The notes under the pieces are model-generated. The model did no database searches. It worked only from the letters and a program-made list of their open reading frames with translations, and had not been told where the DNA came from. Position numbers and translations under genes: made by a program. DNA of 64,000 nt from an uncultured Planctomycetia bacterium (GTDB lineage: Bacteria > Planctomycetota > UBA8108 > UBA1146): the NCBI GenBank assembly GCA_964422295.1, contig CAYRAM010000001.1, positions 135,448 through 199,447 of the forward strand. Direction: 5' to 3'. Positions 4,264 to 30,096 of this stretch are shown in pieces (position 1 is the stretch's first letter; every line of letters starts with the position of its first letter).

Positions 4264-4271
4264 GGGGCCGC

Positions 4272-5099: not shown

Positions 5100-5103
5100 T
5101 CCA

Positions 5104-8897: not shown

Positions 8898-8931
8898 TCG
8901 AGGCAAACTCCTGGCTGATGTCAGGTAGGAA

Positions 8932-12899: not shown

Positions 12900-12917
12900 T
12901 CGAATCATCAAAATTGG

Positions 12918-13709
12918 ATGGTGAGAGAGGAAAGAAAAATGAAGTTGACAGGTTTCATGAGCAAGAATCGGGGGAAGTCAATTTCCCGAATTCTGCTCCT
13001 GACCATCTTTGCAATGACGCTGGCTTTGGGGTCGAGCGTCATCGCTCATGCACAGCCTGAAGAGGCTGCTGCAGAGGAAAAGGAAACGATTTCTGTCCTC
13101 GATAATATTCGCGCAGCGGGGGCGGTCGGTGTGATTCTGATTCTGCTTTCGGGTGCGGGGTTTGCTTTGACCCTGATGCACGGTATGCAGTTGCGACGGG
13201 ATGTCCTGGTGCCGCCCGATTTGCTGGATCATGTCGAGTCGCTCTTTGAGACCGAGGATTACGAGGGGGCTTTGGATGCCCTGGAGCAACAGCCCAGCTT
13301 CCTTTCCAGTGTTCTCGCTGCAGGCCTGCCGAAGATCGATCGACCCTACGACGATATCGAAGATGCCATGGAGGAGGCCGGAGAGATCGAATCTTCCGAA
13401 TTGCATCGGAAGATCAGTTACATCTCGTTGATTGCGGCGATTTCTCCCATGTTGGGGTTGTTGGGTACAGTGATGGGAATGGTTACGGCGTTCAACGTGA
13501 TCGCTACCGAAAAGACATCACCGAAGCCGGCGGATTTGGCAGAAGGAATTTCGGAAGCGTTGATGACCACCATGATGGGATTGATCGTTGCGATCCCAAT
13601 GACGGTTTTCTACTTCATATTGAAAACGATCATCGATGGTGCATCTGTGGAGGTGAGCAGTATCGCTTCTGAGTTGATGTCTCGTTTTGATGATGGTGTC
13701 AACGCCTAA
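12918..13709 (+). CDS. exbB: MotA/TolQ/ExbB-family proton channel
   Basis: Carries the family signature 'SPMLGLLGTVMGMVTAFNVIA' and three TM segments. Confidence 0.85.
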   Translation: MVREERKMKLTGFMSKNRGKSISRILLLTIFAMTLALGSSVIAHAQPEEAAAEEKETISVLDNIRAAGAVGVILILLSGAGFALTLMHGMQLRRDVLVPPDLLDHVESLFETEDYEGALDALEQQPSFLSSVLAAGLPKIDRPYDDIEDAMEEAGEIESSELHRKISYISLIAAISPMLGLLGTVMGMVTAFNVIATEKTSPKPADLAEGISEALMTTMMGLIVAIPMTVFYFILKTIIDGASVEVSSIASELMSRFDDGVNA

Positions 13710-13726
13710 GGCTGGACGGAGCAAGA

Positions 13727-14233
13727 ATGGCACGGAAACAGAAGAAAATACTGAAAAAGAAAGGAGTCGACATGGACATGACGCCCATGATCGACATCGT
13801 TTTCTTGCTCATTGTTTTCTTCATGGTGGTCACAGAACTCACGGTGCAGCAAGCAGAGGTGATTTTGCCGATCGCATCTGAAGCGACCGTTGAGGAGCCT
13901 CAACCCGGTAGCCGAATCTTGTTCATCAACGTCTCCTTTGACAAAGAAGGCAATGAAGTTGTGCAGTTGATGAATAGCTCTCCGCTGACTCCGGAGAGGT
14001 TGCGATTGGAATTGAAACTGGAGGCGGAGGCGTACGGACTTTGGGAAGATAATCCTGTGAACCCCGATCCAAAGATGCGCCTCTCGAAACTCGAGGTGAC
14101 AATTCGTTGTGACCAGGGTGCCGAGAGTGGAAACATTCACAAGATTTTTGCCGCTTGCCAATATGCACGGATTTACCAGGTGCGATGTGCGGCGATTTCA
14201 GAAAGATTTGAGGACCCTTACAACCCTGAGTAG
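13727..14233 (+). CDS. exbD: ExbD/TolR-family protein 1
   Basis: 'MDMTPMIDIVFLLIVFFMV' is the canonical ExbD/TolR N-terminal TM motif. Confidence 0.85.
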   Translation: MARKQKKILKKKGVDMDMTPMIDIVFLLIVFFMVVTELTVQQAEVILPIASEATVEEPQPGSRILFINVSFDKEGNEVVQLMNSSPLTPERLRLELKLEAEAYGLWEDNPVNPDPKMRLSKLEVTIRCDQGAESGNIHKIFAACQYARIYQVRCAAISERFEDPYNPE

Positions 14234-14297
14234 CGGGGTTCGTTGCAGTGAATCCCCCGGAGGATGTCCGTGGTGGAGGAGAAAGAAGGGAGGAAGC

Positions 14298-14810
14298 ATG
14301 GCGAGAAGAAAGATCATCGATCCGGACCGCAACAAGGCAGATGCGGATATGACGCCTATGATTGACGTCGTGTTCCTTCTGTTGATCTTCTTCATGTTGG
14401 CAACCAAGTTCAAAATGCCCGAAGGAACGCTGAGGTCCTATCTCCCTAAGAATCGGGGAGAATCCAACAGCCGTCCGATGTTGTCAGAAAATTGTCGGGT
14501 CACCCTGCTTTATCAGGGGGATCAAGTGGTGGCCTATGCTGATCAGGCGCAGGTCCCAACCAGTGATGTCCTGGAGTCTGATTTCGAGTTGCACACCGGC
14601 GTTCCTGGTCCCGATCTCGATTACATTGAACAGCACATCCTTCGCCGCAGGGATACCTACGTAGCCCTGGGTGATACTGCGACATTGCCTGTTGTCATCG
14701 ATTTTGCAGAAAAAGTTCCGTACAAGTACGTGATCGACGTTTTGAACATTTGCGCCAAGTTAGACATTGAGAACATAGCCTTTGCCCAACCGGAAACTCC
14801 GATGGACTGA
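14298..14810 (+). CDS. exbD: ExbD/TolR-family protein 2
   Basis: 'ADMTPMIDVVFLLLIFFML' motif. Start set at ATG 14298 after GGAGGA. The ORF track's 14109 start would overlap exbD-1. Confidence 0.85.
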   Translation: MARRKIIDPDRNKADADMTPMIDVVFLLLIFFMLATKFKMPEGTLRSYLPKNRGESNSRPMLSENCRVTLLYQGDQVVAYADQAQVPTSDVLESDFELHTGVPGPDLDYIEQHILRRRDTYVALGDTATLPVVIDFAEKVPYKYVIDVLNICAKLDIENIAFAQPETPMD

Positions 14811-14977
14811 GGTGACGTTTCGGAAGTTCGATTGCTTTCGACGTTGTGAAGTTTGCAATTTGCCGATCTCGTCCATTTACCCTTGGAGGGGTGGACGAAA
14901 GAAGAAAGGGTGCTCTCGTGATTGAGACCCATAATCCCCAGAACGGCGCTGTCCCTGCCGTCTCTCGTGGAACCTCC

Positions 14978-17590
14978 ATGCTTCCGGGCAACATCGTTTG
15001 TCTTGGAATCATCGTGCTCCTGTTTTCCGGCTGTAGTGGATCTGCGGATCCGCGTCCAAGCGAGGTGGCATTCGAGCCTCCGCGCAAGGAAGCGAGCTCG
15101 GAAGGACAGGATCTTTTCGCCCGTACCCAGGATCCCGACGACCGCGGTGTCCAAGCCGTTGCCGACGAGGTCAATCTCGCCAGGCAGGCGAATCGAGCTA
15201 CTGCGAATTGGCTCCTGGAACAGGCAAACAAGCTGTTCGCAGAAGCGAATTACGCTGCTGCCGAGCGGGCTTACCGTCGGGCACTCGATGCCGATCCCAC
15301 CCTTCAGGAGGCGAAGGAAAAGTTGTCCCGCTGCCTGATGTTCCTCGGTCGCAGGGACGGTGAGATCCGAACGATTCTTCAGCAGTTCGGTGAAGAGGTT
15401 CGGGTGCTGGAGGAGCAACGTCTCAGTGAGGCCAATCGATTCCTCTCTGATGGCAAGGCTGCTCTCGACGCCGGGAAGATCGACGAGGCTCTCGGTCTGC
15501 TCCAACGCGCAAGAGAGCGACTGATCTGGTTCGATTACGGAGTCGATGTCACCGACATGCAGGCTGAAGCTCAGAGTCTTTATGACACGGCGCGCGGACT
15601 CAAGATCGACATGGACAAGCGGTCGAGAGAGCAGAGAGAAGCCCTCGCCATCGAGGAAGCGGAACGTCTGACGAGGGAAGTTGAAAAGCGTCGCTTGGAG
15701 CGAATCGCAACTCTCATGGATCGCATCGAAGATGCGATGGTTCGTGAGGACTTCCGAGAGGCGATCCAATTGTCGAGGACCATCTTGGGCATCGACCCCG
15801 AGAATCTTGCAGCACGCCGTCTTCAGGATCGTGCCAGCGAGTTTCTTCGTTCCTTCCGCTATGTCAGTTATCTTGGGCGTGAAAAAGAGCAAACCACGCG
15901 GGTCTGGGAAGATTTGGAAGCGAGTGCGATCCCGTACGAGGACCCATTCCGCTTCCCCGAAGACAAGAATTTCTGGCAGGGAGAAGTGCAGAAGCGCCTC
16001 GATGAGCTCTCCAGTTCCAATTTGGAAGAGTCCCCCGAAATCCGCAAAATTCGCCGCACTTTGGCGACCGGTACCACCTCATTTGACTTCCCCGATGCCA
16101 ACTTGGGTGAAGTTGTGGAGTTCCTGCGATCGGTAAGTGATCTCAACATCACCATTGATCCTGAAATCGATGCTGCGGATGTTCCAGTCAACCTGTCATT
16201 GGAAGGCGTCAAACTCGGCGAAGCGCTCGACCTGATCATGAAGGCTACCGGCAAAGCCTTCACATTCAGGGAGAATATCCTCTTCATTACAGAACCGGAA
16301 AATGCCTTTGGCGATCTGATCTTCGATATTTACAACGTGACCGACATTCTCAACAAGATCAGGGATTTCCCTGGTCCGGCGATTCGAGTATCGAGCAATG
16401 ACGAGGGAGAGGACGGAGGTGGTGACAACCCCTTCGACTTCGGTGGCTTCGATGAGGAAGAAGACGCAGAACTGACTCCCGACGATCTCGTGGAGTTGAT
16501 CCAGGAGTCCACCGGTGGTGCAGATGCCTGGGATGAATCCAATTCGACCATCAGTGGTCACAAGGGCCAGATTCTGATCAATGCCACCCGTGAATTGCAC
16601 CTGTCGATTCATGATTTCCTCACCAATCTTCGCGCTAACAGTGACGTCTTTGTCGTCGTGGAAGCTCGATTTATCGACATGGTCGATGATTTCCTTGAGG
16701 ACATCGGGGTCGATTCGAGAAACTTGGGGCAACCTCCCGGGCAAGGTTTTGGTACCGCATACGGGAGTTTGAACAGTTCTGGAACCGGGGGGACCGACAT
16801 CGGTTTCAATAACCTCGGTGATCCGGCAGATCCTCTGCTGGTCATGGGTCAAAATCGAACCGCAGGCCGTATGCAGAATATCCTCGACGGCTTTGTTGGG
16901 GGGGCTGCTGGAAGTCGCCTGAACTCCACACTGCGAGGACTGACGATGCAGGTCACCTGGCTTGACCCCTTCCAGATCAACGCGATCATTCGTGCCAGTC
17001 AGGAAGAGCGTGCTGCGAGGATCGTTACTGCACCCAAAGTGACCGCGTCCAATGGCCAGCGTGTCCATGTCTCTGTGATCACACAGCGCTCCTATGTTCA
17101 GGACTACGAGTTGGTTTCTGGTGGTACAGGACTAGTCGTATCCGAGGTTGCTGACCCGGTGATCGACACCTTCCAGGACGGCGTTGTCCTCGATGTTCGC
17201 CCAGTGATTTCAGCGGATCGGCGTTACATCACTGTGGATGTTCGTCCGACTCTTGCAAGTTTGATCAACGGAGTCATTTCGACGGTAACCATCAGTCTGG
17301 GAACACTTTCGAGTGCGGCGAGTCTCGTAGAAATCGATCTGCCGGAGATTTCGTTGCAGCAGGCGTTTACTTCGGTGACGGTTCCCGATGGCGGTACTGT
17401 TCTATTGGGTGGATTCCGTTCGCTCAATGAACTGAATTACGAATCGACGGTGCCGATTTTGGGGAATATTCCGATTCTCAAAAACGCTTTCCGTCGCAAA
17501 GCGAACCTTAATGAAAAGCGCAGTCTTTACATTCTTGTAACTGCAAAGATTGTCGATCTGCGTGCTGAAGAGCAGAAGTTGTTCAACTAA
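14978..17590 (+). CDS. Secretin (PilQ/GspD family) lipoprotein with N-terminal TPR/coiled-coil region and STN/N0-like domain - secretin paralogue 2
   Basis: The C-terminus carries the secretin signature (VTVPDGGTVLLGGFRSLNELNYESTVPILGNIPILKNAFRRKANLNEKRSLYILVTAKI). Start at ATG 14978 gives the lipobox signal 'MLPGNIVCLGIIVLLFSGCSG'. Its architecture parallels secretin 1 (ARERLIWFDYGVDVTD vs ILERIRWFPFDYDLSD). Confidence 0.85.
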   Translation: MLPGNIVCLGIIVLLFSGCSGSADPRPSEVAFEPPRKEASSEGQDLFARTQDPDDRGVQAVADEVNLARQANRATANWLLEQANKLFAEANYAAAERAYRRALDADPTLQEAKEKLSRCLMFLGRRDGEIRTILQQFGEEVRVLEEQRLSEANRFLSDGKAALDAGKIDEALGLLQRARERLIWFDYGVDVTDMQAEAQSLYDTARGLKIDMDKRSREQREALAIEEAERLTREVEKRRLERIATLMDRIEDAMVREDFREAIQLSRTILGIDPENLAARRLQDRASEFLRSFRYVSYLGREKEQTTRVWEDLEASAIPYEDPFRFPEDKNFWQGEVQKRLDELSSSNLEESPEIRKIRRTLATGTTSFDFPDANLGEVVEFLRSVSDLNITIDPEIDAADVPVNLSLEGVKLGEALDLIMKATGKAFTFRENILFITEPENAFGDLIFDIYNVTDILNKIRDFPGPAIRVSSNDEGEDGGGDNPFDFGGFDEEEDAELTPDDLVELIQESTGGADAWDESNSTISGHKGQILINATRELHLSIHDFLTNLRANSDVFVVVEARFIDMVDDFLEDIGVDSRNLGQPPGQGFGTAYGSLNSSGTGGTDIGFNNLGDPADPLLVMGQNRTAGRMQNILDGFVGGAAGSRLNSTLRGLTMQVTWLDPFQINAIIRASQEERAARIVTAPKVTASNGQRVHVSVITQRSYVQDYELVSGGTGLVVSEVADPVIDTFQDGVVLDVRPVISADRRYITVDVRPTLASLINGVISTVTISLGTLSSAASLVEIDLPEISLQQAFTSVTVPDGGTVLLGGFRSLNELNYESTVPILGNIPILKNAFRRKANLNEKRSLYILVTAKIVDLRAEEQKLFN

Positions 17591-17616
17591 GCCTGATACT
17601 CAGGGATGGTTATTGG

Positions 17617-17669
17617 GGGTCGCCACCGGGTGGAAATCTCGGTGGCGACCCTCGTGCCTTGAACGAGGG
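17617..17669 (+). terminator. Two overlapping, mutually exclusive GC-rich hairpins downstream of secretin 2; no U-tract
   Basis: Hairpin A is GGGTCGCCACC(17617-27) paired with GGTGGCGACCC(17641-51). Hairpin B is CCCTCG(17649-54) paired with CGAGGG(17664-69). The two share 17649-51. Confidence 0.45.
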
Positions 17670-17677
17670 TGAGTGAG

Positions 17678-18409
17678 ATGAGTCAAATCCAGGCCATATT
17701 TTTTGATGTCGATGGGACCTTGTTCTCGACGGTCGATTTTGCTGCAAGGGCAAGGCGGGCCAGTGTACGAGCGATGATTCAGGCTGGTCTCGACATCGAG
17801 GAGGATCTCCTGATGGAGGAACTCCACGAGGTGGTCAAAGAGTTTTCATCCAATTACGAGGGACACTTCGACAAACTTTTATTGCGTTTGCCCCGCAGAT
17901 CTTTGAAGGGATTGAACCCGGCTGTCATCATCTCTGCAGGCATCGTCGCTTATCACGATACAAAAACTCGCTTTCTGGAACCTTTTGAAGATGCCAGTGA
18001 GGTCTTGCGACGCCTTGCTAAAACTGGGCTTCGTCTGGGAATCATCACAGAGGGACTTGAAGTCAAGCAGTCAGAAAAATTGATTCGCTTGCGACTGCTT
18101 GAGTACTTTGACCACAAGGCGATCTTTATTTCGCATCAGGTTGGGATTTCGAAGCCTAATCCAAAGCTCTATCAGAGGGCATGCACGGATCTCAACCTCC
18201 GTCCATCCGAATGCCTGTACGTGGGCGATAACCCCATGCTCGATATCGATCCAGCCAATGAGATCGGAATGGTCACGGTGCTGGTGAGCCGAGAGGACAG
18301 ATTTCGATCAGTCAGTGGCAATACACAACCGGACCACGTCATTCAGAATTTCTGGGATTTGTCGGAAATCCTGCGTGAACAGGGTGTGAGTGTCCCGGAG
18401 GTACTGTGA
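17678..18409 (+). CDS. HAD-superfamily hydrolase (phosphatase)
   Basis: Has the 'IFFDVDGTLF' DxDGT motif I and 'YVGDNPMLDI' motif IV. The ATG at 17678 with a GAGGG SD is preferred over the GTG at 17669. Confidence 0.8.
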   Translation: MSQIQAIFFDVDGTLFSTVDFAARARRASVRAMIQAGLDIEEDLLMEELHEVVKEFSSNYEGHFDKLLLRLPRRSLKGLNPAVIISAGIVAYHDTKTRFLEPFEDASEVLRRLAKTGLRLGIITEGLEVKQSEKLIRLRLLEYFDHKAIFISHQVGISKPNPKLYQRACTDLNLRPSECLYVGDNPMLDIDPANEIGMVTVLVSREDRFRSVSGNTQPDHVIQNFWDLSEILREQGVSVPEVL

Positions 18410-19371
18410 TGGCACATCCTGAGTTGAGCATGGTGATTCCGGTTCGTGATGAGATTGAAGCGGTCGATTCACTGGTATCACGCTTATCTGAGTCTCTGGA
18501 AATGCTCGACGTTCGATCATTCGAGGTGATCTTTGTGGATGACGGATCTACGGATGGAACTGCAGAGCGACTTGAATGGCTGACCATCGAGGATGACCGC
18601 TACAGCCTTTTACGATTGCGCAGGCCTATGGGAAAAGGGGATGCCCTCGCAGCGGGATTCGAAAAAAGTCGCGGTGATTGGGTTGCGACCATCGATGCCG
18701 ATTTACAGGAACCCCCTGAAGAAATGGGTTCTTTGTTGCGTATTGCTCGATCCGGAGTTGACCTTGTGATCGGTTGGCGTCATCAGCGTAGTGATCAGCT
18801 GAGTCGCAGGATTTCTTCAACCCTTTACAACCAAATGGTCCGCTGGGTCGGTGGGCCACCTCTCCATGACGGCAACTGTGGCTTCAAAGTAATGACCCGG
18901 GAATTAGCGCTCACCCTGCCACTGGCAGGAGGAAGATTCCGATTTATGCATCTCGTTGCTGCTCGCTGGGGATACACCGTGCAAGAGGTTCCTGTTTCCC
19001 ATCGGCCACGACAGACGGGAGCTTCCCACTTCGGAGTATCGCGTGCTTTTTCAGCAATCTTCGATCTGGTAACAGTCCTGGTTTATCTGCGTGGGCAGGA
19101 TCGACCAGGTAGGAGTCTCTTGCGCTGGGGCATCTTTACAGGATCTCCCGGATTGGTGATTTTGATGTTCCTCGGCTATCTACGATTCGCCGATGGCACG
19201 ATAAACTATCGCTACCCACTTTTAGTATTGGGCGCACTGTTGACTCTGGCAGGATTGCAACTGGTTCTCTTTGGTTGTATGGCGGAATGGTTCTCAGGAA
19301 AGTCAAATGCAACTTTCACGCGCAAGAAATCAAACAATGTGGTACTTCGAGAGCGTGAACGACTGCCGTGA
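18406..19371 (+). CDS. Family 2 glycosyltransferase, polyprenyl-phosphate sugar synthase type (DPM1/ArnC/GtrB-like) with C-terminal TM helices
   Basis: Carries 'SMVIPVRDE', 'FEVIFVDDGSTDGT', 'DADLQEPPEE' and C-terminal hydrophobic helices. It overlaps the upstream gene by 4 nt (ATGA). Confidence 0.85.
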   Translation: MMAHPELSMVIPVRDEIEAVDSLVSRLSESLEMLDVRSFEVIFVDDGSTDGTAERLEWLTIEDDRYSLLRLRRPMGKGDALAAGFEKSRGDWVATIDADLQEPPEEMGSLLRIARSGVDLVIGWRHQRSDQLSRRISSTLYNQMVRWVGGPPLHDGNCGFKVMTRELALTLPLAGGRFRFMHLVAARWGYTVQEVPVSHRPRQTGASHFGVSRAFSAIFDLVTVLVYLRGQDRPGRSLLRWGIFTGSPGLVILMFLGYLRFADGTINYRYPLLVLGALLTLAGLQLVLFGCMAEWFSGKSNATFTRKKSNNVVLRERERLP

Positions 19372-20504
19372 TGTCTGTTCCAACCCTGCGTGTATTTTCT
19401 GCATCCTGGCCTGGCAAAGTGGAACCGTGGCGCGCACGATTCATCCGGGATCTTCATAAAGACTTGTCTCAGGATTTTGAAACGAGTGTGCTCGCGCCAG
19501 CCATCCATCAGGAGGACCCTCTCGAAGAGCAGGATGGGGATCTAAAGATCCGCCGCTTCCGATACCGGTCCGGTGGTAAGTCTCCCAGGCAGGGGGGAGC
19601 AGGAATCGTCGAATCGGTCTCATGGATGCTGTCAGGCCGAAGGGCTTTGCAGCAGTGGAAAATGGATCAAAGGAACAGTGTGACACTGGTTCATTGGGGG
19701 GTTCCAGGTGCATTTCTTGCGGCGCCGTTTTGCGACGAGATCAACAATCCAATGGTTGTCTGGTGTCATGGGAGTGATGTTCATAATCATGGACGCGGGT
19801 TTTGGGGCTCATTCCTTCTAAGGAGGGGCTTGAAGTCGGCGACTCGCGTTCTTGCTGCCAGTGCTGAGTTGGCGGATGAACTGAAGAGGAAACATGGAGT
19901 TCCTGCGGTGGAGGTGCTGCCTGTTGGAATTGATGCAACCTTTCAATCTCCGGCGATTGTCGGCAGGAGAAGTGCAGGGTTGCAAATACTCTGGGTTGGG
20001 GAAAGGGTCGAATCGAAAGGTTACGGAAGGGCATTACGCGGAGTCCAGAGGGCTGCGGAAAAGGGAGTGTCAGTATCGATGGAAGTCATTGGGGATGGAC
20101 CTCTCAAAGGCGTTGGAAACTTTACTCCGAACTTGCGAGGAGTCATCGATTCCAGGGGCGTTCGTGAAGCGATGGATCAGGCAGATCTATTGTTGCTACC
20201 CAGCCATGGTGAAGGGACTCCTCTGGTAGTGCAGGAAGCCAAGGCCCGCAATCTGCCTGTGGTCGCAACTCCGGTGGGTGGGATTCCAGCGATGTTCGAG
20301 GGTGACCAAGGATGGTTCGCGCTGAATTCATCCGGGGAGACAGAACTTGAAGCAGAAATTTGCGATTTATTGTCAATGTTGGAGCGGGACGCAGATGCAC
20401 TTGCTCAGCGGAGGCAGCAACTCGCAGAGTCATCGATTCCGGTTCAGTACCGGCGACAAAGTGCTGACAGATTGACCGAGATTATTCAGGAATTGAGCCC
20501 GTGA
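19368..20504 (+). CDS. Family 4 (GT-B) glycosyltransferase
   Basis: 'LLPSHGEGTPLVVQEAKARNLPVVATPVGGIPAMFE' matches the GT-B EX7E region. It overlaps the upstream gene by 4 nt. Confidence 0.8.
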   Translation: MMSVPTLRVFSASWPGKVEPWRARFIRDLHKDLSQDFETSVLAPAIHQEDPLEEQDGDLKIRRFRYRSGGKSPRQGGAGIVESVSWMLSGRRALQQWKMDQRNSVTLVHWGVPGAFLAAPFCDEINNPMVVWCHGSDVHNHGRGFWGSFLLRRGLKSATRVLAASAELADELKRKHGVPAVEVLPVGIDATFQSPAIVGRRSAGLQILWVGERVESKGYGRALRGVQRAAEKGVSVSMEVIGDGPLKGVGNFTPNLRGVIDSRGVREAMDQADLLLLPSHGEGTPLVVQEAKARNLPVVATPVGGIPAMFEGDQGWFALNSSGETELEAEICDLLSMLERDADALAQRRQQLAESSIPVQYRRQSADRLTEIIQELSP

Positions 20505-23266
20505 TGTGGGATTCACCCTTACTTCGCTTGATGATTCTTCTCGTCACAGGTTTGGCTCTCTATTCACCGGTCTTTGATGGTGAATGGGTATTTGATGACG
20601 AACGTCTGGTGGCGGGACACGATTGGCTATGGAGAGACTGGTCCGGAGTCTCTGCGGAGTTGAATTCTTGGGGCGAGATTCTTCGGGATGGTCCTCGGGA
20701 GGGGGATGAAGTTCGTACAGGATTTCGTCCGATTCGTTTCATTTCATATCGCATCGATGTATTGGTGCTAAAGTCAGCGGGAATCGACCAACCCAATCAT
20801 CCCGACGCACCGATACCGTTTCATATTCATAACCTGCTGTTGCATGTGTTGGTGGCGTGGTCCATCTCAGGTTTGATCGGGCGCTTATTTCCCTGGAGCC
20901 GAGGTGGACTTCATTTGGTAGTTGCCTTGGTGTATCTGGTTCATCCTGTTCAGACGGAAGCGGTCGCCTGGATCTCCGGTCGTAGAGATGTGTTGTTTTC
21001 CCTCTTCTATCTGTGTGCTTTGCTCGGAATTGCCGGACAACCGCTTCGAAACCTGCGTGGCCTCAAGGGGTGGCTGAGGGGATTCTTTCTGGCCTTGCTG
21101 GGGGCGATGGCGATGGCTACCAAGGAGATGGCCGCAACTCTGCCCTTGGTGATGGTAATGCTGGCGGCAATTCCTTCGGAAGATGACTCCGGTGCGGAAT
21201 TCGGTGAGGGCTCCTCTTCAAGCAATGCGCTGTCTTTGCGGCGGGCACTCTTGGCTTTTCCAGTTTGGATTCCGGTATCCCTGGTGGTTTGGGGAATGAC
21301 TCTACAACTGCTGTTGCATCACCACCCGGGAGAAGGTACCGAACGGTGGGGGGGCAGCGCTTGGGCGACCGTGTGGACTTCTGGACGCGCATTGGTCGAT
21401 TACATGTTGTTGATCATCGCTCCATGGGGGCTCACGGTGGATTACTCCCATGGAGCATTTCCACCTTCATCCGGCCCATTCCAACCGATTAGTTCCATCT
21501 TCTGCATGATCGCATTGGTGGTCCTTTCCGTGATCACCTGGAGATATCGGGGTTCAGCTTGGTCAGTGCTGGGGTGGCCGCTGTTTTTTGTACTCCTGAG
21601 CCCTGTGTTGCAGCTGATTCCTCATCCGGAGAGATTTGCGGAGCGATTCATGTACCTGCCAATGCTGGCGCCGATGCTGCTGCTCGCTGGCGGACTTTAT
21701 CGTTTAGAGAAATCCCACCCCGGTTGGAGGCAGATTCTGGTTCCGATTCTGTTGGTAATATTGGCGTTATTGACGCGATCCCGACTTCGCGACTGGGAGG
21801 GACCGTATCCCCTTTGGAAAAGTGCAGTCGAAGCGCAGCCGCAATGCGCCCGGGCATGGTTTGGTCTTGCAGACGCTGCCAGTGAAAAAGGATGGAACTG
21901 GGAGGCTGTGGAAGGATTGCGGACGACGATCGAGATTCTGGGACCAATGGAGAGGGACCATCTCCAACAAGGATTATACCTCCAGGCGTTACAGATTCGT
22001 GCCGGATTGCTGGCAACCTTTCTCCCGCAGCAAGCATTGCTTGATGCCCGCTCCCACTGGGAGGAATTGTTGGAAGAAGTGGATACGGATGGGACAGCCG
22101 TATCAGATCAGGCTTTGCCTTGGTTTGAACGCATGAAGGTCGAAGTCCGGCTGGGTGATGACGAGGCTGCGCTGTTATGTGCGCGACGACTCTTGGAATT
22201 GGAGTCTTCTCTTCCCGAACAACGCTTTGAATCCCTGATGTTATTGGCGGCTTTAGGCTCCAGTGAAGAGAGTCTCGACAGTTTGGAAGTGGCCCGGGAG
22301 CTCGCAATGGAGATGGGCGGGAATGCGCCCTCAAGGGTGTTTTATCAGAAGGGGATGTTACACCTTGCCGCAGAAGAATATGAATTGGCACTCAAAGCAT
22401 TTGTCGAATCTCAAAATAATCTGACCGCCGACGGTCGAGCTAGCAGTGCACTCTATCGTCAGGCGGAATGCCAACTGCAACTTGGACGCACTCAGGATGC
22501 AAAATCGATCCTCGAAAATCTCTTGAAGGTGGATCCAGGACATCTTGCAGCACACCTGTCTTTGGGTGAGTTGTTGTTGGCGACTGCAGAGAGAGAATCG
22601 GCCCGTGGGCATTTTGAATTTGTCTTGTCAGTTTCTCCCGACAATCCCCAGGCAATTCAGGGGATGCGTCAGGTGATGATTCGTCAAAGATTGGAAGAGG
22701 GTGATTCAGTCGCATTACCCGATCCGACCCGGATTGCAACATTGACCCTGTTGGCAGAAAAACTGCAAAAAGAAGGGCAATTTGAAAAGGCCAGGGAAGC
22801 ATTGGTCGAAGCCGAAAAGGAGGCGGAAGGTCCGGCAGAGAGGGATCGGCGCCTCGATCTCATCTTGCGAATCGCCCGTTTGGATGCCCGCATGAATGAA
22901 TGGGATCGAGCCGGTATTGGATACAGCCGTCTGTTCGATCGAACGGAGGTCGCTGATCGTGGTCGATTCATTCTTGAAGCTGTCGAGGTGCTCAGACGAA
23001 CCGGAGGAGCCAGCATTGCGCTGGAGTTTCTCGAACAGCAGCAACGGGAAGGAGTTTCGCATCCGGCTCTGAGGTCCCAATTGGGTGCACTCGCAGATCA
23101 AGTGGGGGATGTGGAAAAGGCTTTGAGGTGGTACCGTGAAGCTTTGGAAAATGACGCAGAAATATCCGAGCAACGCCGTCAACAGATCGATGACAGGATC
23201 AAAGTCTTGAAAAAAATGGGCGAAGTCGCTGATCCAGAAAACAACACGGTGAAAACAACACCATGA
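20501..23266 (+). CDS. TMTC/PMT-like multi-pass membrane protein (putative GT-C glycosyltransferase, DUF1736-like) with C-terminal TPR repeats
   Basis: About 450 aa of polytopic membrane domain beginning 'LALYSPVFDGEWVFDDERLV', followed by ~450 aa of TPR-like repeats. It overlaps the upstream gene by 4 nt. The TGA stop lies inside the 14-nt tandem repeat. Confidence 0.6.
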   Translation: MMWDSPLLRLMILLVTGLALYSPVFDGEWVFDDERLVAGHDWLWRDWSGVSAELNSWGEILRDGPREGDEVRTGFRPIRFISYRIDVLVLKSAGIDQPNHPDAPIPFHIHNLLLHVLVAWSISGLIGRLFPWSRGGLHLVVALVYLVHPVQTEAVAWISGRRDVLFSLFYLCALLGIAGQPLRNLRGLKGWLRGFFLALLGAMAMATKEMAATLPLVMVMLAAIPSEDDSGAEFGEGSSSSNALSLRRALLAFPVWIPVSLVVWGMTLQLLLHHHPGEGTERWGGSAWATVWTSGRALVDYMLLIIAPWGLTVDYSHGAFPPSSGPFQPISSIFCMIALVVLSVITWRYRGSAWSVLGWPLFFVLLSPVLQLIPHPERFAERFMYLPMLAPMLLLAGGLYRLEKSHPGWRQILVPILLVILALLTRSRLRDWEGPYPLWKSAVEAQPQCARAWFGLADAASEKGWNWEAVEGLRTTIEILGPMERDHLQQGLYLQALQIRAGLLATFLPQQALLDARSHWEELLEEVDTDGTAVSDQALPWFERMKVEVRLGDDEAALLCARRLLELESSLPEQRFESLMLLAALGSSEESLDSLEVARELAMEMGGNAPSRVFYQKGMLHLAAEEYELALKAFVESQNNLTADGRASSALYRQAECQLQLGRTQDAKSILENLLKVDPGHLAAHLSLGELLLATAERESARGHFEFVLSVSPDNPQAIQGMRQVMIRQRLEEGDSVALPDPTRIATLTLLAEKLQKEGQFEKAREALVEAEKEAEGPAERDRRLDLILRIARLDARMNEWDRAGIGYSRLFDRTEVADRGRFILEAVEVLRRTGGASIALEFLEQQQREGVSHPALRSQLGALADQVGDVEKALRWYREALENDAEISEQRRQQIDDRIKVLKKMGEVADPENNTVKTTP

Positions 23267-23303
23267 AAACAACACCATGAAAACAACAGCATGAAAGCGA
23301 CCC
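23235..23303. repeat. 14-nt tandem repeat (RTGAAAACAACASC, about 4.5 copies) spanning the stop of the TMTC-like gene and the start of the next gene
   Basis: Direct reading: cagaaaacaacacg / gtgaaaacaacacc / atgaaaacaacacc / atgaaaacaacagc / atgaaagcgaccc. The stop TGA is at 23264-66 in copy 3 and the next ATG is at 23291 in copy 5. Confidence 0.85.
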
Positions 23304-25618
23304 ACTATCTGGCGATGATTGGCGCAGCACTGATGGTGCTCGAAGTCTTGGTTGCCCGAGAATTGGCAACGGTGTTTGGCAACACGTTGTCCGGGGTCAC
23401 TTTGGCGATGAGTCTCGCATTGATCGGACTCGCGGCAGGTCTAATTGTGGTCACCTTGGGCGCCGAGCGCAGATCCGAGTCCTCCCATTGGTGCAGGATT
23501 ACCCTTTTGGGAATTGTTCCTGCAGGGATCTGGGTGGTGTATCTCTTGCCGTTGCTCCTCGATGGCAGTCGGCTGCATGGATCTGCTGCATTGAGACTTT
23601 TGTTGTCGCTGCCGCTATTGTGTGGAGCGATTCCACTGGGAGCTGCGATTACCGCAGCATTCAATGCCTCTCGGAAAGAAGTCGAAGAACGGGCATCCAA
23701 TGGGGTCTGTGCTCTCGATCTCGGCAGTGCAGCGGGTGCACTGCTGACCCCGCTTCTGCTCTTGCCTGAACTCGGAGAAGCCGGTGCTCTCGTGGTTGCG
23801 GTGCTTTTGTTGTTGGCTTGCTGCCGACGTGGGGAAACGGTCGCCAGGGTCCCATCCGAGTTGACAGAGGCGGATCATCCTGTTTCTCGGAGAGACATCG
23901 CCATCGCCGCATGGATCGGCATCGTGACGATGGCGTTACAAATTGGCTGGATCCGAACCTTGGGAGAAGTCTTTGGCTCAACTTTGACCATCTTCGGATT
24001 GACGACGGCAGCCATCTTGCTGGGTGGAGCAGCGGGTGCTCAGGCGATGCCGGCCATCCGTTCCAAGGTAGGCAATGAAAAGGTTCAACGATTCGCTTGG
24101 GCGCTGTGGCTGACGCTCCAGGGCTTTTCAATGCTGTTGCTGTCATTTACACCTTACATCTTCATCGCAATGGTTCAGTGGTTTAGCAACCAAGGTGAAT
24201 CGGGATTGCTGTGGGGGGAATGCCTGCTGATTCTTGCAGTCGTTGGTTTGCCATCCTTTTGTGTGGGGATCATCGTCCCTGCATTGATGGTAAAGCATGG
24301 TGAATATGGCCGCCTGGACAAGGGTGCGGGAGTCTTACAGGGTGCTCAGCTCATCGGAGGGGTGGTTGGTCTTGGATTGACAGCAACCTGGCTGCTTCCC
24401 GCATACGGTTCCCTTGGGCTCTTCATTGCTTGCGGAATAATGACTTTTGCCGGAGGAGTTCCTCTGCTGCGCAGGAGCGGTCACGGCACCACTGCGGGGG
24501 CCTTTTTGTGTGGCGGTCTGCTGATGGCTGCTTCCAGCCAGTTTTGGGATTCATCCCTGATGTCTGCAGGTGTTTTCCAGTGGGATCGGGCAGAGGTGGC
24601 CCGAGGGGAAGCATTGAAAGCTTGGGAGCAGCGGGAGGTGGTTGCAGAATTTTCAGGACAGTTTGGCAACGTACTCATCGAACGCGACTATTCGCAAAAC
24701 ACGGCATACCTTCGTGTGGGAGGCAGAATCGAGGGCAGCGTGCCCATCGACCCTGCTGCATCCACAATGGCAGATTTGCCCACGGAGGTTCTCCTCGGAG
24801 TTTTACCCACATGGGCGGGATCGGGACAGGGTCGGCTCTTGGTGGTGGGCCTGGGTGGAGGCACGACGGTGGCTGCAGCAGTCGAGACCTGGGATGGGGA
24901 GATGGTCGTCCTCGAAATTGAGCCGGCGGTGAAGGAAGCACTGTTATCGCGGCAGGGAGCAGAAGTTTTTCCCATTGAAAATGAAGCACTTCGAGGCCGG
25001 AAAGCTCCCCAGCTGGTGATTGAGGATGCGCGTTCATACCTGGTCCAGGATAATCGCCAGTGGGATGCGATCGTCATTCAGCCATCGGAACCGTGGTTGC
25101 CTTGGTCGGCGCCGCTCTTCACCCCAGACTTCCACCAATTGTTGGCGAATCGTCGTGCAGCGGGTGGGGTTGTCATCCAATGGTTGCAACTCTATCGCAT
25201 TGGAATTCCGGAATTTGCTGCCATCCTCTACTCCTTCAAAGAAGCGCTGGGAGAGGTGCAAGTATGGCATCCGCCGGGGACCGGTGAGGTCTTGCTGGTT
25301 GCCGGAGATGTGAAGGTGCCCGAGTCACCCATCGAATCCGTGGAAAAGGCGTGGGGCAGGGTGCTCGGAGTTCCTTTCCCCACTCAACCCTGGCTCGACG
25401 ATGACGACGTGGTGGCATGGCTTGAATCTGCAGGAGGGGCGGACCTCGACCGTCTCAGGGAGCGTCTGGAGTACTACTTGCCCCTGAGGGAAGAGAGTGG
25501 GATGGATCTGTCCCGGAGCCTCCTGTCCTCACTGGAGGCGATCCGCCGCAGGAGTCCTAGCAAGGGCCCCGCAGGGGAATCGACCGATTCCGTCAGCGGG
25601 GCTCCAGATGGGGGCTAA
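23291..25618 (+). CDS. Polytopic membrane protein fused to a spermidine-synthase-like (SpeE-fold, SAM-MTase-like) C-terminal domain
   Basis: About 430 aa of TM helices, then 'LLVVGLGGGTTVAAAVE...VVLEIEP...LVIEDARSYL...WDAIVIQPSEPW', which matches the aminopropyltransferase fold pattern. Confidence 0.7.
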   Translation: MKATHYLAMIGAALMVLEVLVARELATVFGNTLSGVTLAMSLALIGLAAGLIVVTLGAERRSESSHWCRITLLGIVPAGIWVVYLLPLLLDGSRLHGSAALRLLLSLPLLCGAIPLGAAITAAFNASRKEVEERASNGVCALDLGSAAGALLTPLLLLPELGEAGALVVAVLLLLACCRRGETVARVPSELTEADHPVSRRDIAIAAWIGIVTMALQIGWIRTLGEVFGSTLTIFGLTTAAILLGGAAGAQAMPAIRSKVGNEKVQRFAWALWLTLQGFSMLLLSFTPYIFIAMVQWFSNQGESGLLWGECLLILAVVGLPSFCVGIIVPALMVKHGEYGRLDKGAGVLQGAQLIGGVVGLGLTATWLLPAYGSLGLFIACGIMTFAGGVPLLRRSGHGTTAGAFLCGGLLMAASSQFWDSSLMSAGVFQWDRAEVARGEALKAWEQREVVAEFSGQFGNVLIERDYSQNTAYLRVGGRIEGSVPIDPAASTMADLPTEVLLGVLPTWAGSGQGRLLVVGLGGGTTVAAAVETWDGEMVVLEIEPAVKEALLSRQGAEVFPIENEALRGRKAPQLVIEDARSYLVQDNRQWDAIVIQPSEPWLPWSAPLFTPDFHQLLANRRAAGGVVIQWLQLYRIGIPEFAAILYSFKEALGEVQVWHPPGTGEVLLVAGDVKVPESPIESVEKAWGRVLGVPFPTQPWLDDDDVVAWLESAGGADLDRLRERLEYYLPLREESGMDLSRSLLSSLEAIRRRSPSKGPAGESTDSVSGAPDGG

Positions 25619-25812
25619 TTTCGGCATCCCCCCTGAAATTCGGCCTCGAATGGCGGATGTCCGTTGACACTTCCGGGCGATACAAATACGATCCGGGCTT
25701 GCACTTCGGACCAATGTTGTGCAGACAGGACTCGTTGGAGTCGATCAGAATGGAACCCGGGGATCGCTGTACAACTTGCTTTGTGCAGCTCTTACCTGAG
25801 GTATAGAGCAAG

Positions 25813-26283
25813 GTGAACAGAATGCAGAATTACAGCCCTCAGAAGAGCTTCGTCCAACGCAAGGAGGATGTCGTTCGCGACTGGTATCACGTCGATGCTT
25901 CCGCAGAGATTCTCGGACGCATGGCGACGGGGATCGCCAACATTCTCATGGGCAAGAATAAACCTACGTATACCCCTCATGTCGATGGGGGGGACTATGT
26001 GGTCGTGACTAATGCGAGCAAGGTGAGGACCACCGGCTCCAAGGGTGAGAAGAATCTCTATCACTACCATACCGGATACTTGGGAGGCCTTCGTTCGAAA
26101 ACCATGGGGTGGATGATCGAAAACAAGCCTGAAGAAGTGGTTCGATTGGCTGTGCGTCGCATGTTGCCAAAGAGTCGCCTGGGAAGAAAAATGCTTTCCA
26201 AATTGAAGGTGTACTCTGGGGAAGAGCACGATATGTCAGCCCAAGCTCCACATTTTGAGACGATCCGGATTACAGACAAGTAA
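25813..26283 (+). CDS. rplM: 50S ribosomal protein L13
   Basis: 'DWYHVDASAEILGRMATGIANILMGKNKPTYTPHVDGGDYVVVTNASKV' is strong L13 family identity. Confidence 0.95.
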   Translation: MNRMQNYSPQKSFVQRKEDVVRDWYHVDASAEILGRMATGIANILMGKNKPTYTPHVDGGDYVVVTNASKVRTTGSKGEKNLYHYHTGYLGGLRSKTMGWMIENKPEEVVRLAVRRMLPKSRLGRKMLSKLKVYSGEEHDMSAQAPHFETIRITDK

Positions 26284-26754: not shown

Positions 26755-26786
26755 AAAAGGGTTCGCAGTTGTGGACCCTTTTTTTG
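26755..26786 (+). terminator. Rho-independent terminator after rpsI
   Basis: aaaaGGGTTCgcagttgtGGACCCttttttt: a 6-bp stem (one G-U pair), an 8-nt loop and a 7-T run. Confidence 0.7.
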
Positions 26787-26836
26787 TTTCGAATCAAATT
26801 TGCTGGATTTCACTGCGTGGTCTCGGGGTAGGGGCA

Positions 26837-27640
26837 ATGAGTTCTTCAGCCAAGCGGAGTCTCCTTCAAAGGATTCAGGATCGTCTCCGCCGGAGAATCA
26901 AGTCTCTGGATTTCAGGTTCCGGCGGCGATTCCAACTGAGTACTATTCGATCCCTCTACGGCCCGCGATTTCACACGAACTTTGGAGACGCCACGTTTCG
27001 TCTCTATATCAAAGCCTCCTATGGGTTCTTTTACTGGGACAGGTTGCGGTCGATAGATCATGATTTCGTCTTCATCGATGTCGGAGCAAATCAAGGGCTG
27101 TACACCCTCGGGGCCGCCTTCAATCCACACTCGCAAGGGTGTCACGCTTTTGAGCCGGTTCCTGCAGTGGCCGACCTATTGTCCCGAAATCTGGAGTTGA
27201 ACGGTGTCTCTGAAAAGTGCCGCGTCAGCGAAGTGGCAATCTCTCGTGATTCGGGAGGGGCGACGATCACCTTGCCAGAGAACCACACCGGCGGGGCATC
27301 GATCCAAAAACACCCAGAGGAGAGCTCCACGAAGACTAGAACGATGGAAATCGAAACGATTTCCAGATCAGGATTGGATCAGCTCATTCGTCGGGATAAC
27401 TTTCCCGTCCGAATCAAGGTGGATGTCGAAGGCCATGAGGAGGTGGTCATTCAGGAGTTGTTGGCGAGCCATTTCGCCGATCGGATCGAGGAAATTTTCT
27501 ACGAGGTCGATGAGCGCTGGGTCGACCCGAACCGGCTTCAATCCAGCCTTCGGAATCTTGGATTCACCCTGATGAAAATCGGTGAAGGAAGCCACTACGA
27601 CATTCTCGCGGAACGAGTCCTGAAACCTCTTAAAGGGTAG
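26837..27640 (+). CDS. FkbM-family SAM-dependent methyltransferase
   Basis: 'FIDVGANQGLYTL' is the FkbM-family motif. The start is moved to ATG 26837 because the ORF track's 26771 start lies inside the rpsI terminator. Confidence 0.75.
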   Translation: MSSSAKRSLLQRIQDRLRRRIKSLDFRFRRRFQLSTIRSLYGPRFHTNFGDATFRLYIKASYGFFYWDRLRSIDHDFVFIDVGANQGLYTLGAAFNPHSQGCHAFEPVPAVADLLSRNLELNGVSEKCRVSEVAISRDSGGATITLPENHTGGASIQKHPEESSTKTRTMEIETISRSGLDQLIRRDNFPVRIKVDVEGHEEVVIQELLASHFADRIEEIFYEVDERWVDPNRLQSSLRNLGFTLMKIGEGSHYDILAERVLKPLKG

Positions 27641-28520: not shown

Positions 28521-29576
28521 TTACAGAGGTGTATCAGGATTGTTGTCTTCATCGTGCCCCAGGGACTCTCTCATCGAGGTGTCCGCCTGAAGGTTTTTCA
28601 AGCGGTAATAATCCATGACACCGAGGTTGCCAGATCGGAATGCATCGGCGATCGCTTTCGGCACTTCTGCTTCTGCCAAGACCAAGACCGCTTTGTTGGC
28701 GGCGATGGCTGCCACTTCTTCTTGCTCTTTTGCTACTGCTAGTGCGCGACGTTTCTCGGCCAGCGCCTGGGCGACTCGTTTGTCCGCTTCCGCCTGTTCA
28801 GCCTGGAGTTTCGCACCGATGTTTTCCCCAACGTCGACGTCGGCGATATCGATGGAAAGGATTTCAAAGGCGGTCCCCGAATCGAGTCCCTTGTCGAGAA
28901 CGGTTTTTGACATCAGATCCGGGTTTGCGAGTACTTGTTTGTGGTTGCCGGCGGAACCGATGGTGGTGACGATACCCTCGCCGACGCGGGCGATGATCGT
29001 CTCTTCGGTGGCACCACCGACCAGGCGGGCTAGATTGGTCCGGACTGTTACCCTGGCGCGGGCACGAAGCTGAATTCCATCCCCGGCCACTGCATCCACC
29101 GTGGAGCGCGCTTGGTCCCGGGAGGGGGCATCGATCACCTTCGGTTGAACACTGGTGCGGACAGCGTCGAGGACGTCCCGACCAGCGAGGTCGATGGCGG
29201 CTGCTTGGTCAAAGTTGAGGCTGATGTGAGCCTTGCTTGCGGCGACCAGGGCCAGGGTTACTCGTTGAACATTGCCCTTGGCCATGAAATGGGCTTCCAG
29301 CTTGTTGCTGTGAACATCACTGAGACCCGCCTTATTCGCCATGATGAGACTGTCGACAATGATCCGCGGGTTCACTTTTCTCAACCACATTCCGATGAAC
29401 GCAAATACGCTGATCTTCACACCTGAGGAAAGCGCCTGAATGTACAGTCTTCCGAAAGTGACGAAGAAGATAAACAGGACGATCGCCAGCACTCCGAGGA
29501 GGAACCAGCCCAAGATCTGCAAAGCGTTAGGCACTTGTCCAATTTGGAACAGACCTAAAAATAGGTTTTCTGACAT
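28521..29576 (-). CDS. floA: Flotillin-like protein FloA (SPFH/band-7 family, YqfA/UPF0365 type)
   Basis: Near-colinear with the Bacillus YqfA pattern: 'GVKISVF...GMWLRKV', '[26 protein letters not shown]', '[74 protein letters not shown]', '...[26 protein letters not shown]'. Confidence 0.9.
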
Positions 29577-29617
29577 GATTTCTCCCTGAATTTATCGGGA
29601 TCGAGTTCGTGAATGAC

Positions 29618-30094
29618 TCACGATTCCGATTCGTTGTTTTTAGCTTTTTTTACGACGATGCGGTTACCATCCGATTCGATGACTACGACCGAATCTCCTT
29701 TGTTGATGTAGCCTTGAAGGGCGACGACATCGAGTCTTTTTCCGGCGATCAGTGCGATCCCTGCCGGTCGGAGGTCCGACATGACGAGACCTCTCTCACC
29801 GATCATTTCCCGGGAGTCTTTGACGTCATCCCCGATGGAGTCCGATTCGCTGAGATCGGTTCTTAAACCAACCCTGCGCAGCCAGAACCGGAACAGGAAC
29901 ACGATCCAGGATACAGTCAAGACTGAACAGGAGACCGCTAGCAAGGTGTACCCCTGAAGGTACAACTCCCACACCGAGTATGCGATGCAGAGCAGGGCTG
30001 CGATCGCCAACACGCCGCCACTGGGGATGAAGACCTCAAGGAAGATCAAGATGAGACCTGCGAGGCAAAGCATGGACAGAAGCCACCATTCCAT
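29618..30094 (-). CDS. NfeD-like short protein (membrane N-terminus + C-terminal OB-fold)
   Basis: Has a hydrophobic N-terminus and the beta-rich C-terminus typical of NfeD-short/YuaF partners of SPFH proteins. It is followed immediately by floA. Confidence 0.7.
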   Translation of the reverse strand: MEWWLLSMLCLAGLILIFLEVFIPSGGVLAIAALLCIAYSVWELYLQGYTLLAVSCSVLTVSWIVFLFRFWLRRVGLRTDLSESDSIGDDVKDSREMIGERGLVMSDLRPAGIALIAGKRLDVVALQGYINKGDSVVVIESDGNRIVVKKAKNNESES

Positions 30095-30096
30095 CG

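Follow-up and report, generated by a model that had tools for sequence, protein, structure and literature searches.

Which pathway is encoded by five tightly packed genes that directly follow a secretin gene in a marine planctomycete? The question arises from a 64,000-nucleotide stretch of DNA of an uncultured Planctomycetia bacterium (NCBI GenBank assembly GCA_964422295.1, contig CAYRAM010000001.1, positions 135,448 to 199,447 of the forward strand), known as a metagenome-assembled genome (MAG); the whole stretch is called the window here. An earlier note on this DNA, made from the sequence alone, had read the genes as a lipid-linked glycosylation module composed of a HAD phosphatase, a family 2 glycosyltransferase (GT2), a family 4 glycosyltransferase (GT4), a polytopic GT-C protein with tetratricopeptide repeats (TPR), and a membrane protein fused to a spermidine synthase-like (SpdS-like) domain. 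Our computational follow-up indicates that the core of the module is probably (roughly 65% by our own estimate) an extracytoplasmic glycosylation pathway of the lipid-linked kind: the GT2 protein would make the donor and the GT-C/TPR protein would use it. We regard the module as a variant, so far new, of the known scheme that pairs a lipid-phosphate-sugar synthase with a GT-C enzyme.

Five coupled genes in a single unit

The list of open reading frames (ORFs) and their translations place five + strand genes in a single unit at 17669-25618, with boundaries essentially where the earlier note had drawn them. The HAD gene (17669-18409) is read from a GTG at 17669; an in-frame ATG at 17678 was the start chosen before. 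It is followed on the same strand by the genes for the GT2 (18406-19371, 321 aa), the GT4 (19368-20504, 378 aa), the GT-C/TPR protein (20501-23266, 921 aa) and a fusion of a major facilitator superfamily (MFS) transporter with a SpdS-like domain (gene 5, 23291-25618, 775 aa). GTGATG is found at each of the first three junctions, where the upstream TGA overlaps either a GTG start by 4 nt (GTGA) or an ATG start by 1 nt (TGATG). The fourth junction, between the GT-C/TPR gene and gene 5, is a 24-nt spacer inside a 14-nt tandem repeat (GAAAACAACACCAT x 4.3, 23237-23296, + strand) that reaches from the end of the GT-C gene across the spacer into the start of gene 5. Every copy of the repeat holds an ATGA, creating two 5-codon mini-ORFs (ATG at 23263 and 23277) that lead, chained stop-to-start, up to the genuine ATG at 23291. 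Relatives, whose contigs are designated by L numbers, simply have overlapping genes at this junction, by GTGATG in L001 and L003, TTGA in L010 and GTGA in L011. Judged from the three GTGATG overlaps and the plain overlaps at the fourth junction in relatives, all five genes are translationally coupled in this lineage.

A predicted polyprenyl-phosphate sugar synthase

The GT2 protein matched PF00535 (2.8e-24) across aa 8-162, a GT-A catalytic domain with DDGSTD and DAD readable in the translation; hydrophobic segments follow at 210-228, 238-261 and 272-290, with a C-terminal transmembrane (TM) hairpin. Residues 6-298 of the 321, a range that takes in the juxtamembrane helices and the TM hairpin, aligned to the ArnC structures 9bhc and 8vxh at ~1e-34, including ArnC 9-297 at 5.7e-34, and further alignments were obtained with GtrB (5eke, 26-311, 4.4e-22) and with an archaeal dolichol-phosphate mannose synthase (DPMS; 5mlz, 2e-15). 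Full-length NCBIfam matches were to the ArnC model (1.6e-36) and to PgfS (2.6e-31). The scores on all equivalog models fell far under the cut-offs, and for this reason the sugar cannot be named. The earlier call of a polyprenyl-phosphate-sugar type had left a cellulose-synthase-like enzyme as its competitor; since the corresponding models, PgaC and NodC, matched the N-terminal ~100 aa only, this competitor falls away. [quoted passage not shown]

A TMTC-like GT-C protein with a long TPR domain

Homologues of the 921-aa protein are bacterial, have a TM domain followed by TPR repeats, and in some cases are named protein O-mannosyltransferase (PMT) by JGI. Seven of 26 homologues matched PMT_2 and three of the 26 matched TMTC_DUF1736, giving a transitive link to the GT-C families; the 921-aa protein is ~23-30% identical to the homologues with such matches. 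It was fold comparison, not sequence, that settled the assignment: a confident AlphaFold2 model generated from the 26-homologue alignment (pLDDT 85, pTM 0.90) was used as the Foldseek query, and the top matches were all GT-C.

The TMTC-like transmembrane catalytic domain covers aa 1-432 (20501-21796, + strand). D32 D33 (in FVFDD) stand directly after TM1 and are invariant in the 26 homologues as well as in a 7-sequence set, so that the acidic first loop on which the earlier GT-C call turned is present. Four other motifs, FRP (75-77), HPVQTEAV (148-155), KEMAATLP (208-215) and AERFMYLP (380-387), are invariant or nearly so in both alignments. The published TMTC motifs include DD (M1), ..YRP (M2), an acidic residue (M3), KETxxT / KET(Q)xxT (M4) and ERxxY (M7) (PMC7801869). 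Paired by eye with this list, the motifs of the 921-aa protein match M1, M2, M3, M4 and M7, the wording HPxxTE for M3 being our own reading; the common set can be written as DD after TM1, (Y/F)RP, HPxxTE, KE(T/M)xxT and ERxxY.

The C-terminal domain (aa ~435-921, ~490 aa; 21803-23266, + strand) matched TPR families of Pfam at aa 439-470, 617-731 and 855-885 and is predicted to be periplasmic. In a charge-based prediction, the short loops at 129-137, 177-187 and 348-353 contain K/R and no acidic residues, and the first external loop has a net charge of -7. Their richness in K/R marks the loops ahead of the last TM helix as cytoplasmic, so that the TPR chain should exit to the periplasm, and both the first loop with the DD active site and the TPR domain are predicted to face that compartment. 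This orientation agrees with the topologies of TMTC and TfpW proteins, which also place the TPR outside (PMC7801869; bioRxiv 10.1101/2020.04.19.049825). The 921-aa protein is thus strongly predicted, with the model as the deciding evidence, to be a TMTC-like (PMT-clan) GT-C enzyme with a long C-terminal TPR domain.

The HAD phosphatase and the GT4 protein

Both remaining enzymes of the core were classified as the earlier note had called them. The 246-aa HAD protein belongs to HAD-IA (HAD_2, 2.6e-24) and passed TIGR02253 with 184.9 bits against a cut-off of 169.75; its catalytic motifs DxDGT and GDxxxxD read intact in the translation. The closest structural relative is the uncharacterised PH1655 (2hoq, 7e-43), and N-acylneuraminate-9-phosphatase was matched at ~1e-11. 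It is the most conserved protein of the module, with 55-89% identity across the clade described below. The GT4 protein, a soluble, retaining enzyme of GT-B type, matched Glyco_trans_1_4, Glyco_transf_4 and Glycos_transf_1 in Pfam, and its EX7E motif reads EGTPLVVQE in the translation. Its top NCBIfam match, TuaC (9e-22), is far under the cut-off of that model, and searches against structures gave weak matches only, of BshA type (~1e-5). Neither the NCBIfam models nor the structures gave a significant match to sucrose-phosphate or glycosylglycerate synthases.

Conservation of the block in Planctomycetota

The comparative set consisted of contigs encoding relatives, a scan of GTDB species representatives and a tblastn census. 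A conserved block, (TPR)-ExbB-ExbD-(ExbD)-secretin-HAD-GT2-GT4-GT-C/TPR-rplM-rpsI, was found in ~25 Planctomycetota MAG species. The gene order is not due to chance, as it recurs in this many species-level MAGs and at GT-C identities down to ~30%. Two members of the block are optional, a small S-adenosylmethionine (SAM, AdoMet) methyltransferase between the GT4 and GT-C genes and the MFS/SpdS gene after the GT-C gene. In the clade of the window (GT-C at least 44% identical; 37% in L003), the MFS/SpdS gene follows the GT-C gene and the small methyltransferase is missing. A distant clade (GT-C 31-36% identical) encodes a 237-aa class I SAM methyltransferase, UbiG-like and generic, between GT4 and GT-C, and usually has no MFS/SpdS gene. 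The small methyltransferase is carried by L006 (5765-6478), L007, L014-L022, L025, L035, L036, L077 and L091. We considered it as a substitute for the MFS/SpdS protein and rejected the idea, since L022 and L091 carry both; the two are not simple substitutes and both are variable.

Genes for GT-C/TPR proteins are frequent, with more than 500 loci confirmed in one scan of species representatives. Outside the clade, TMTC-like GT-C genes occur without the block; in L023 and L034, which belong to two other phyla, an ArnC-like GT2 is the next gene. Tandem arrays of 3-4 TMTC-like GT-C/TPR paralogues were also observed in other phyla (L079, 3167-11224; L027).

The neighbouring secretin locus and the ends of the module

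The locus upstream of the module (2293-17590) is type IV pilus-like, of the kind found in the Planctomycetes-Verrucomicrobia-Chlamydiae (PVC) group. Besides two unknown proteins, it encodes a 656-aa PilM-like protein of the Amuc_1101 family and two 900-aa secretins of the Amuc_1098 family; Amuc_1101 and Amuc_1098 represent Akkermansia-type families. Both secretins have an N-terminal TPR, and between them are two large TPR proteins and ExbB-ExbD-ExbD. The earlier note had suggested that the module might serve this apparatus. One part of that suggestion held, in that the module adjoins the second secretin across the clade, including genomes whose GT-C identity is near 30%.

Three observations loosen the link. 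The housekeeping pair rplM-rpsI is kept in the same synteny just as well. No prepilin motif G(F/M)T(L/I)xE was found in any frame of the window, and no pilin gene was found in it; no obvious Ser/Thr-rich acceptor protein was found near the module. Finally, a 17-bp perfect GC-rich hairpin (17614-17654, + strand) stands between the secretin stop (17590) and the HAD start, with a minimum free energy of -44.7 kcal/mol (z = -5.3 vs shuffles) and no U-tract. A hairpin is present at the equivalent site in all relatives checked except L077, and a U-tract accompanies it in L019, L035 and L036. The hairpin of the window is probably a transcript boundary or an attenuator. Given the hairpins after the secretin gene and the U-tracts in some relatives, the module is probably transcribed as a separate unit, in the genomes of those relatives at least. 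The distant clade also has a conserved motif upstream of the HAD gene, CTTCCGATATAT, with CTTCCGATATA(T/C)T in L017, L019, L022, L035, L036 and L006; this last motif may be a promoter -10 region. What connects the module to the secretin apparatus is synteny, which weakly supports a functional link.

At the other end, a sigma-70-like promoter, TTGACA-17-TACGAT (25664-25692, + strand; 10/12 consensus matches, consensus scan only), lies ahead of rplM (25813-26283) and marks the putative downstream boundary of the module.

A proposed pathway and its relation to known systems

In the pathway that we propose, the sugar loaded onto undecaprenyl phosphate by the GT2 protein would be flipped across the membrane as the lipid-phosphate-sugar, and the GT-C enzyme would then pass the sugar on to an acceptor that the TPR domain holds. 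The HAD and GT4 proteins would make or modify the donor in the cytoplasm, and the MFS part of gene 5 might act as the flippase or as a supplier of co-substrate. As acceptor we tentatively prefer a protein over a glycan or lipid, without giving it an even chance; by analogy with TfpW and the eukaryotic TMTCs, the adjacent type IV pilus-like secretin apparatus would provide it, in the form of at least one of its periplasmic or outer-membrane proteins.

Several three-component systems follow the same logic: GtrA/GtrB/GtrC in O-antigen glucosylation, ArnC/ArnEF/ArnT in the addition of 4-amino-4-deoxy-L-arabinose (Ara4N) to lipid A, CsbB/GtcA/YfhO, and the pentofuranose system PPPRS/MATE/GT136 (PMC11127046). 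All combine a polyprenyl-phosphate-sugar synthase at the cytoplasmic face with a GT-C enzyme acting outside, and the ArnC/GtrB likeness of the module's GT2 ranges from 1e-34 to 4e-22. In the pentofuranose system a HAD phosphatase domain dephosphorylates the lipid-linked ribose-5-phosphate donor, a precedent for the HAD protein of the module (PMC11127046). The module differs from these systems in having no gene for a GtrA, SMR or MATE flippase and in its GT-C enzyme, which is TMTC-like with a long TPR domain and is not GtrC, ArnT or GT136. None of them has the GT4 or the MFS-SpdS fusion of the module, or the small SAM methyltransferase of its relatives.

The eukaryotic TMTC1-4 proteins, which belong to the GT-C/PMT clan, form part of the cadherin O-mannosylation pathway, and their transferase activity was deduced from sequence and models; there are also full-length homologues in prokaryotes, which are uncharacterised (Eisenhaber et al., PMC7801869). 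The 921-aa protein has the architecture of these proteins, an N-terminal GT-C membrane domain and a C-terminal TPR region on the non-cytoplasmic side (a predicted side in our case). The donor of the TMTCs is dolichol-P-mannose, whereas that of the module would be an undecaprenyl-P-sugar, and the GT-C gene of the module differs further in sharing an operon with its own donor synthase. A bacterial parallel is provided by TfpW of Pseudomonas aeruginosa Pa5196/PA7, a GT-C protein that arabinosylates type IV pilin and has 11 TM helices plus a TPR domain in the periplasm (bioRxiv 10.1101/2020.04.19.049825). Compared by description, TfpW has a DDx in its first periplasmic loop and its C-terminal TPR in the periplasm, as is predicted for the 921-aa protein. 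Its gene likewise stands beside type IV pilus genes and, as proposed for the module, its donor is a lipid-linked monosaccharide synthesised in the cytoplasm. Its gene directly follows pilA, whereas the module of the window stands beside PilM-like, secretin, TPR and ExbBD genes; moreover, its donor pathway is of the PRPP/DprE type and not ArnC-like. We found no functional studies of bacterial TMTC-like GT-C/TPR enzymes in the literature. An operon that pairs such an enzyme with its own donor synthase constitutes a defined minimal system for finding glycosylation targets. If the acceptor does lie in the neighbouring pilus-like apparatus, the assembly of a surface organelle would be linked to periplasmic glycosylation in the PVC group.

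Weighing the alternatives

A number of results weigh against the proposed glycosylation pathway. The fold, the DD in the first external loop and the C-terminal TPR of the TMTC/PMT-like call all stood, but the profile searches that the earlier note had looked to did not deliver: over the first 450 aa of the 921-aa protein, Pfam gave no PMT_2 (PF13231) or DUF1736 (PF08409) match even at E <= 10, and the sole match in the N-terminal half was DUF6056 (E 0.006). The profile of the 26 GT-C homologues, searched against PDB sequences, retrieved noise only and no GT-C. The module contains no recognised flippase of the GtrA, SMR or MATE type. L016 and L021, both Planctomycetota MAGs, keep secretin-HAD-GT4-MT-GT-C (MT, the small methyltransferase) without a GT2 between HAD and GT4. 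The roles given above to the HAD and GT4 proteins are purely by analogy. TPR domains also serve polysaccharide-export scaffolds, which bears on the nature of the acceptor. Indeed, the same chemistry of a lipid-phosphate-sugar and a GT-C enzyme could modify a glycan or lipid, be it lipopolysaccharide (LPS) or lipid A, peptidoglycan or exopolysaccharide (EPS), on the model of ArnT, GtrC and YfhO; the TPR domain would then be a periplasmic scaffold as in BcsC, PgaA and AlgK. We consider such an acceptor only slightly less likely than a protein, and much of the evidence can be read in its favor: the top relatives of the GT2 serve lipid A modification (ArnC) and O-antigen glucosylation (GtrB), TPR models from polysaccharide systems gave weak matches (PrsT 1.4e-14, BcsC 0.009), neither a pilin nor an obvious Ser/Thr-rich acceptor turned up nearby, and the module is apparently transcribed apart from the secretin gene. 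A protein acceptor is favored by the motif set and the GT-C/long-TPR architecture, which match TMTC and TfpW; TfpW has been tied by experiment to protein glycosylation and the TMTCs to the protein O-mannosylation pathway. The conserved adjacency to a pilus-like secretin speaks for it as well, as does the absence of LPS, EPS or peptidoglycan genes from the block.

It is also conceivable that the operon houses two pathways. The classical two-step route to compatible solutes combines a GT4 with a HAD phosphatase. The HAD and GT4 proteins, with the small methyltransferase in relatives, might make a cytoplasmic glycoside via a phosphorylated intermediate (cf. sucrose-phosphate and glycosylglycerate), and the GT2/GT-C pair would be unrelated and merely share the operon or block. 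L016 and L021, which keep HAD-GT4-MT-GT-C and have no GT2, are compatible with such a division, and the synteny of the clade is known to keep genes as unrelated as rplM-rpsI. The gene junctions argue the opposite, as the stop of HAD overlaps the start of GT2 and the stop of GT4 overlaps the start of GT-C by the same GTGATG device, and HAD, GT2 and GT4 stay in this order throughout the clade. The enzymes do not fit either: the GT4 is without a significant match to the synthases in question, and the HAD protein is of subfamily IA (TIGR02253), not of the IIB type of SPP and MpgP. We judge two separate pathways improbable and retain a single glycosylation pathway for the core. In L016 and L021, the two secretin genes adjoin, with no ExbBD between them.

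An MFS transporter fused to a spermidine synthase fold

The earlier note had assigned a SpeE fold to the end of gene 5 and had not recognised its membrane part as a transporter. In our model (pLDDT 86.9, pTM 0.86), fold comparison identified the membrane part as a genuine MFS fold with 12 TM helices (aa 1-394, 23291-24472, + strand). It is followed by a 13th TM helix predicted to run from the cytoplasm to the periplasm (aa 400-418, 24488-24544, + strand) and by a SpdS-like domain of class I methyltransferase type with a C-terminal helical tail (24578-25618, + strand), which is predicted to be periplasmic. The C-terminal domain has the spermidine-synthase fold, an N-terminal beta-hairpin and a Rossmann-like part (6qmm 23.5, 1uir 23.0), which confirms the fold assignment; in Pfam nothing came under 0.01, and PF01564 reached only E 0.04 (13.9 bits vs a gathering threshold of 22.9). 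In marine Planctomycetota MAGs its close relatives are classed as hypothetical proteins, and proteins named 'fused MFS/spermidine synthase' are reached at 23-29% identity (1e-31 to 1e-9). With 24.7 bits vs a cut-off of 40 for NCBIfam NF037959, gene 5 represents a divergent branch of this family. It has the same architecture as NF037959 proteins and the common invariant motifs G-x-G-x-G, E, D and PSxPW; it differs in having QPSEP vs EPSNP and in lacking the C-terminal TPR extension of many members. Our literature search found no report on the function of the NF037959 family.

The helix at 400-418, with RRSGHG before it and WDSSL after it, is hydrophobic throughout the family, and W419 and G427 are conserved residues. 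Among the loops, those on the predicted inner side contain 19 K/R in total, vs 2 K/R in those on the predicted outer side. The termini of MFS proteins are cytoplasmic, which together with the 13th helix and the 19:2 distribution indicates that the SpdS-like domain should be periplasmic.

This topology bears on the activity that the earlier note had suggested for gene 5, that of an aminopropyl transferase using decarboxylated SAM (dcSAM), or of another alkyl transferase dependent on SAM, which would act on a membrane-proximal acceptor; such an enzyme would have its catalytic domain in the cytoplasm. The nucleotide-binding features are in place, the Gly-rich loop, E542 and D579 being invariant among the 26 aligned family members, and weak matches to NCBIfam aminopropyltransferase models were obtained (2e-5 to 1.5e-3). 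However, true spermidine synthases require the acid of GxG(D/E)G for dcSAM, where it binds the aminopropyl amine (PMC10349129). In gene 5 this acid is a Gly (GLGGGT vs GGGEGA in 1uir), it is absent in 26/26 family members, and by the same yardstick gene 5 is not an aminopropyltransferase (PMC10349129). The catalytic DxxDP is also replaced, with IQPSEP in gene 5 vs IDLTDP in 1uir and EPSNP in distant fused relatives, and PF01564 stays under its threshold. The 12-TM MFS core, the 13th helix and the charge distribution would put the domain in the periplasm, and the gene itself is a variable member of the block. Neither dcSAM nor SAM is known to be available in the periplasm. An alkyl transferase of the suggested kind is very improbable, and we abandon this assignment.

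The fungal NHMT (AN4663) comprises a 7-TM membrane domain and a SpdS-like methyltransferase, and methylates His1 of secreted lytic polysaccharide monooxygenases (LPMOs) in the endoplasmic reticulum (ER); because the GxG(D/E)G acid is lost, it is a methyltransferase and not an aminopropyltransferase (PMC10349129). Like gene 5, it joins a polytopic membrane domain to a spermidine-synthase fold without this acid, the likeness being at the level of the fold; the SpdS-like domain of METTL13 was also likened to that of gene 5. NHMT acts on substrates of the secretory pathway, and its fungal 7-TM domain differs from the 12+1-TM MFS transporter of gene 5. For the SpdS domain of gene 5, the most likely function is to bind an AdoMet-like ligand, or to serve as a methyltransferase or binding module. 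The MFS part could be the missing flippase, or the supplier or exporter of a co-substrate. Plants have MFS-type Golgi SAM transporters, a possible parallel to gene 5. One specific version, which we rate as unlikely, is that of a self-supplying periplasmic methyltransferase: the MFS part would export SAM or a related co-substrate to the fused SpdS domain, which would methylate whatever the GT-C enzyme has installed, be it a sugar or a protein. If true, it would mean SAM-dependent chemistry in the bacterial periplasm, parallel to NHMT in the fungal ER, and a function for the large uncharacterised 'fused MFS/spermidine synthase' family. The label of this family is itself misleading, since its proteins are without the residues that define aminopropyltransferases; it covers an AdoMet-binding-like fold behind an MFS transporter, predicted to be periplasmic. 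A SpdS-fold domain predicted for that compartment is a genuine oddity and poses the testable question of how a cofactor would be supplied outside the cytoplasm.

Within the block, gene 5 is a variable accessory and not a fixed fifth member. A general association of fused MFS/SpdS genes with GT-C/TPR genes was rejected: a GT-C gene was nearby in 2/80 metagenome loci, one of which was a full block, and none of the ~55 GT-C loci outside the clade had a fused MFS/SpdS gene. The pairing is clade-specific. Among the few associations outside the Planctomycetota clade, L089, from an unrelated lineage, carries a fused MFS/SpdS gene and a divergently oriented PMT_2+TPR gene ~2 kb apart (4255-5961, - strand; 8001-10739, + strand). 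In L004, a 964-aa ORF overlapping a distant MFS/SpdS gene was rejected as a partner; it is spurious and lies on the opposite strand to a helicase gene.

Other features of the window

An RNA-family search of the window returned two tRNAs only, leaving the module without known RNA elements. A defence-system reading was rejected, as PADLOC gave no matches of note. Near the beginning of the window (496-1308, + strand) is the gene for a family 4 uracil-DNA glycosylase with a ~90-aa N-terminal extension rich in charged residues. Directly after rpsI, a gene encodes an FkbM-family methyltransferase (26771-27640, + strand), found at the same position only in the closest relative (L013); a terminator-like hairpin (26755-26782) overlaps its start. 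Further downstream, the flotillin gene FloA and two NfeD genes (28521-31713, - strand) are syntenic only in closer relatives (L001, L009, L010 and L013). At 36799-39117 (- strand), a 772-aa protein consists almost wholly of ankyrin repeats (Ank_2, 4e-89), an unusual composition in bacteria.

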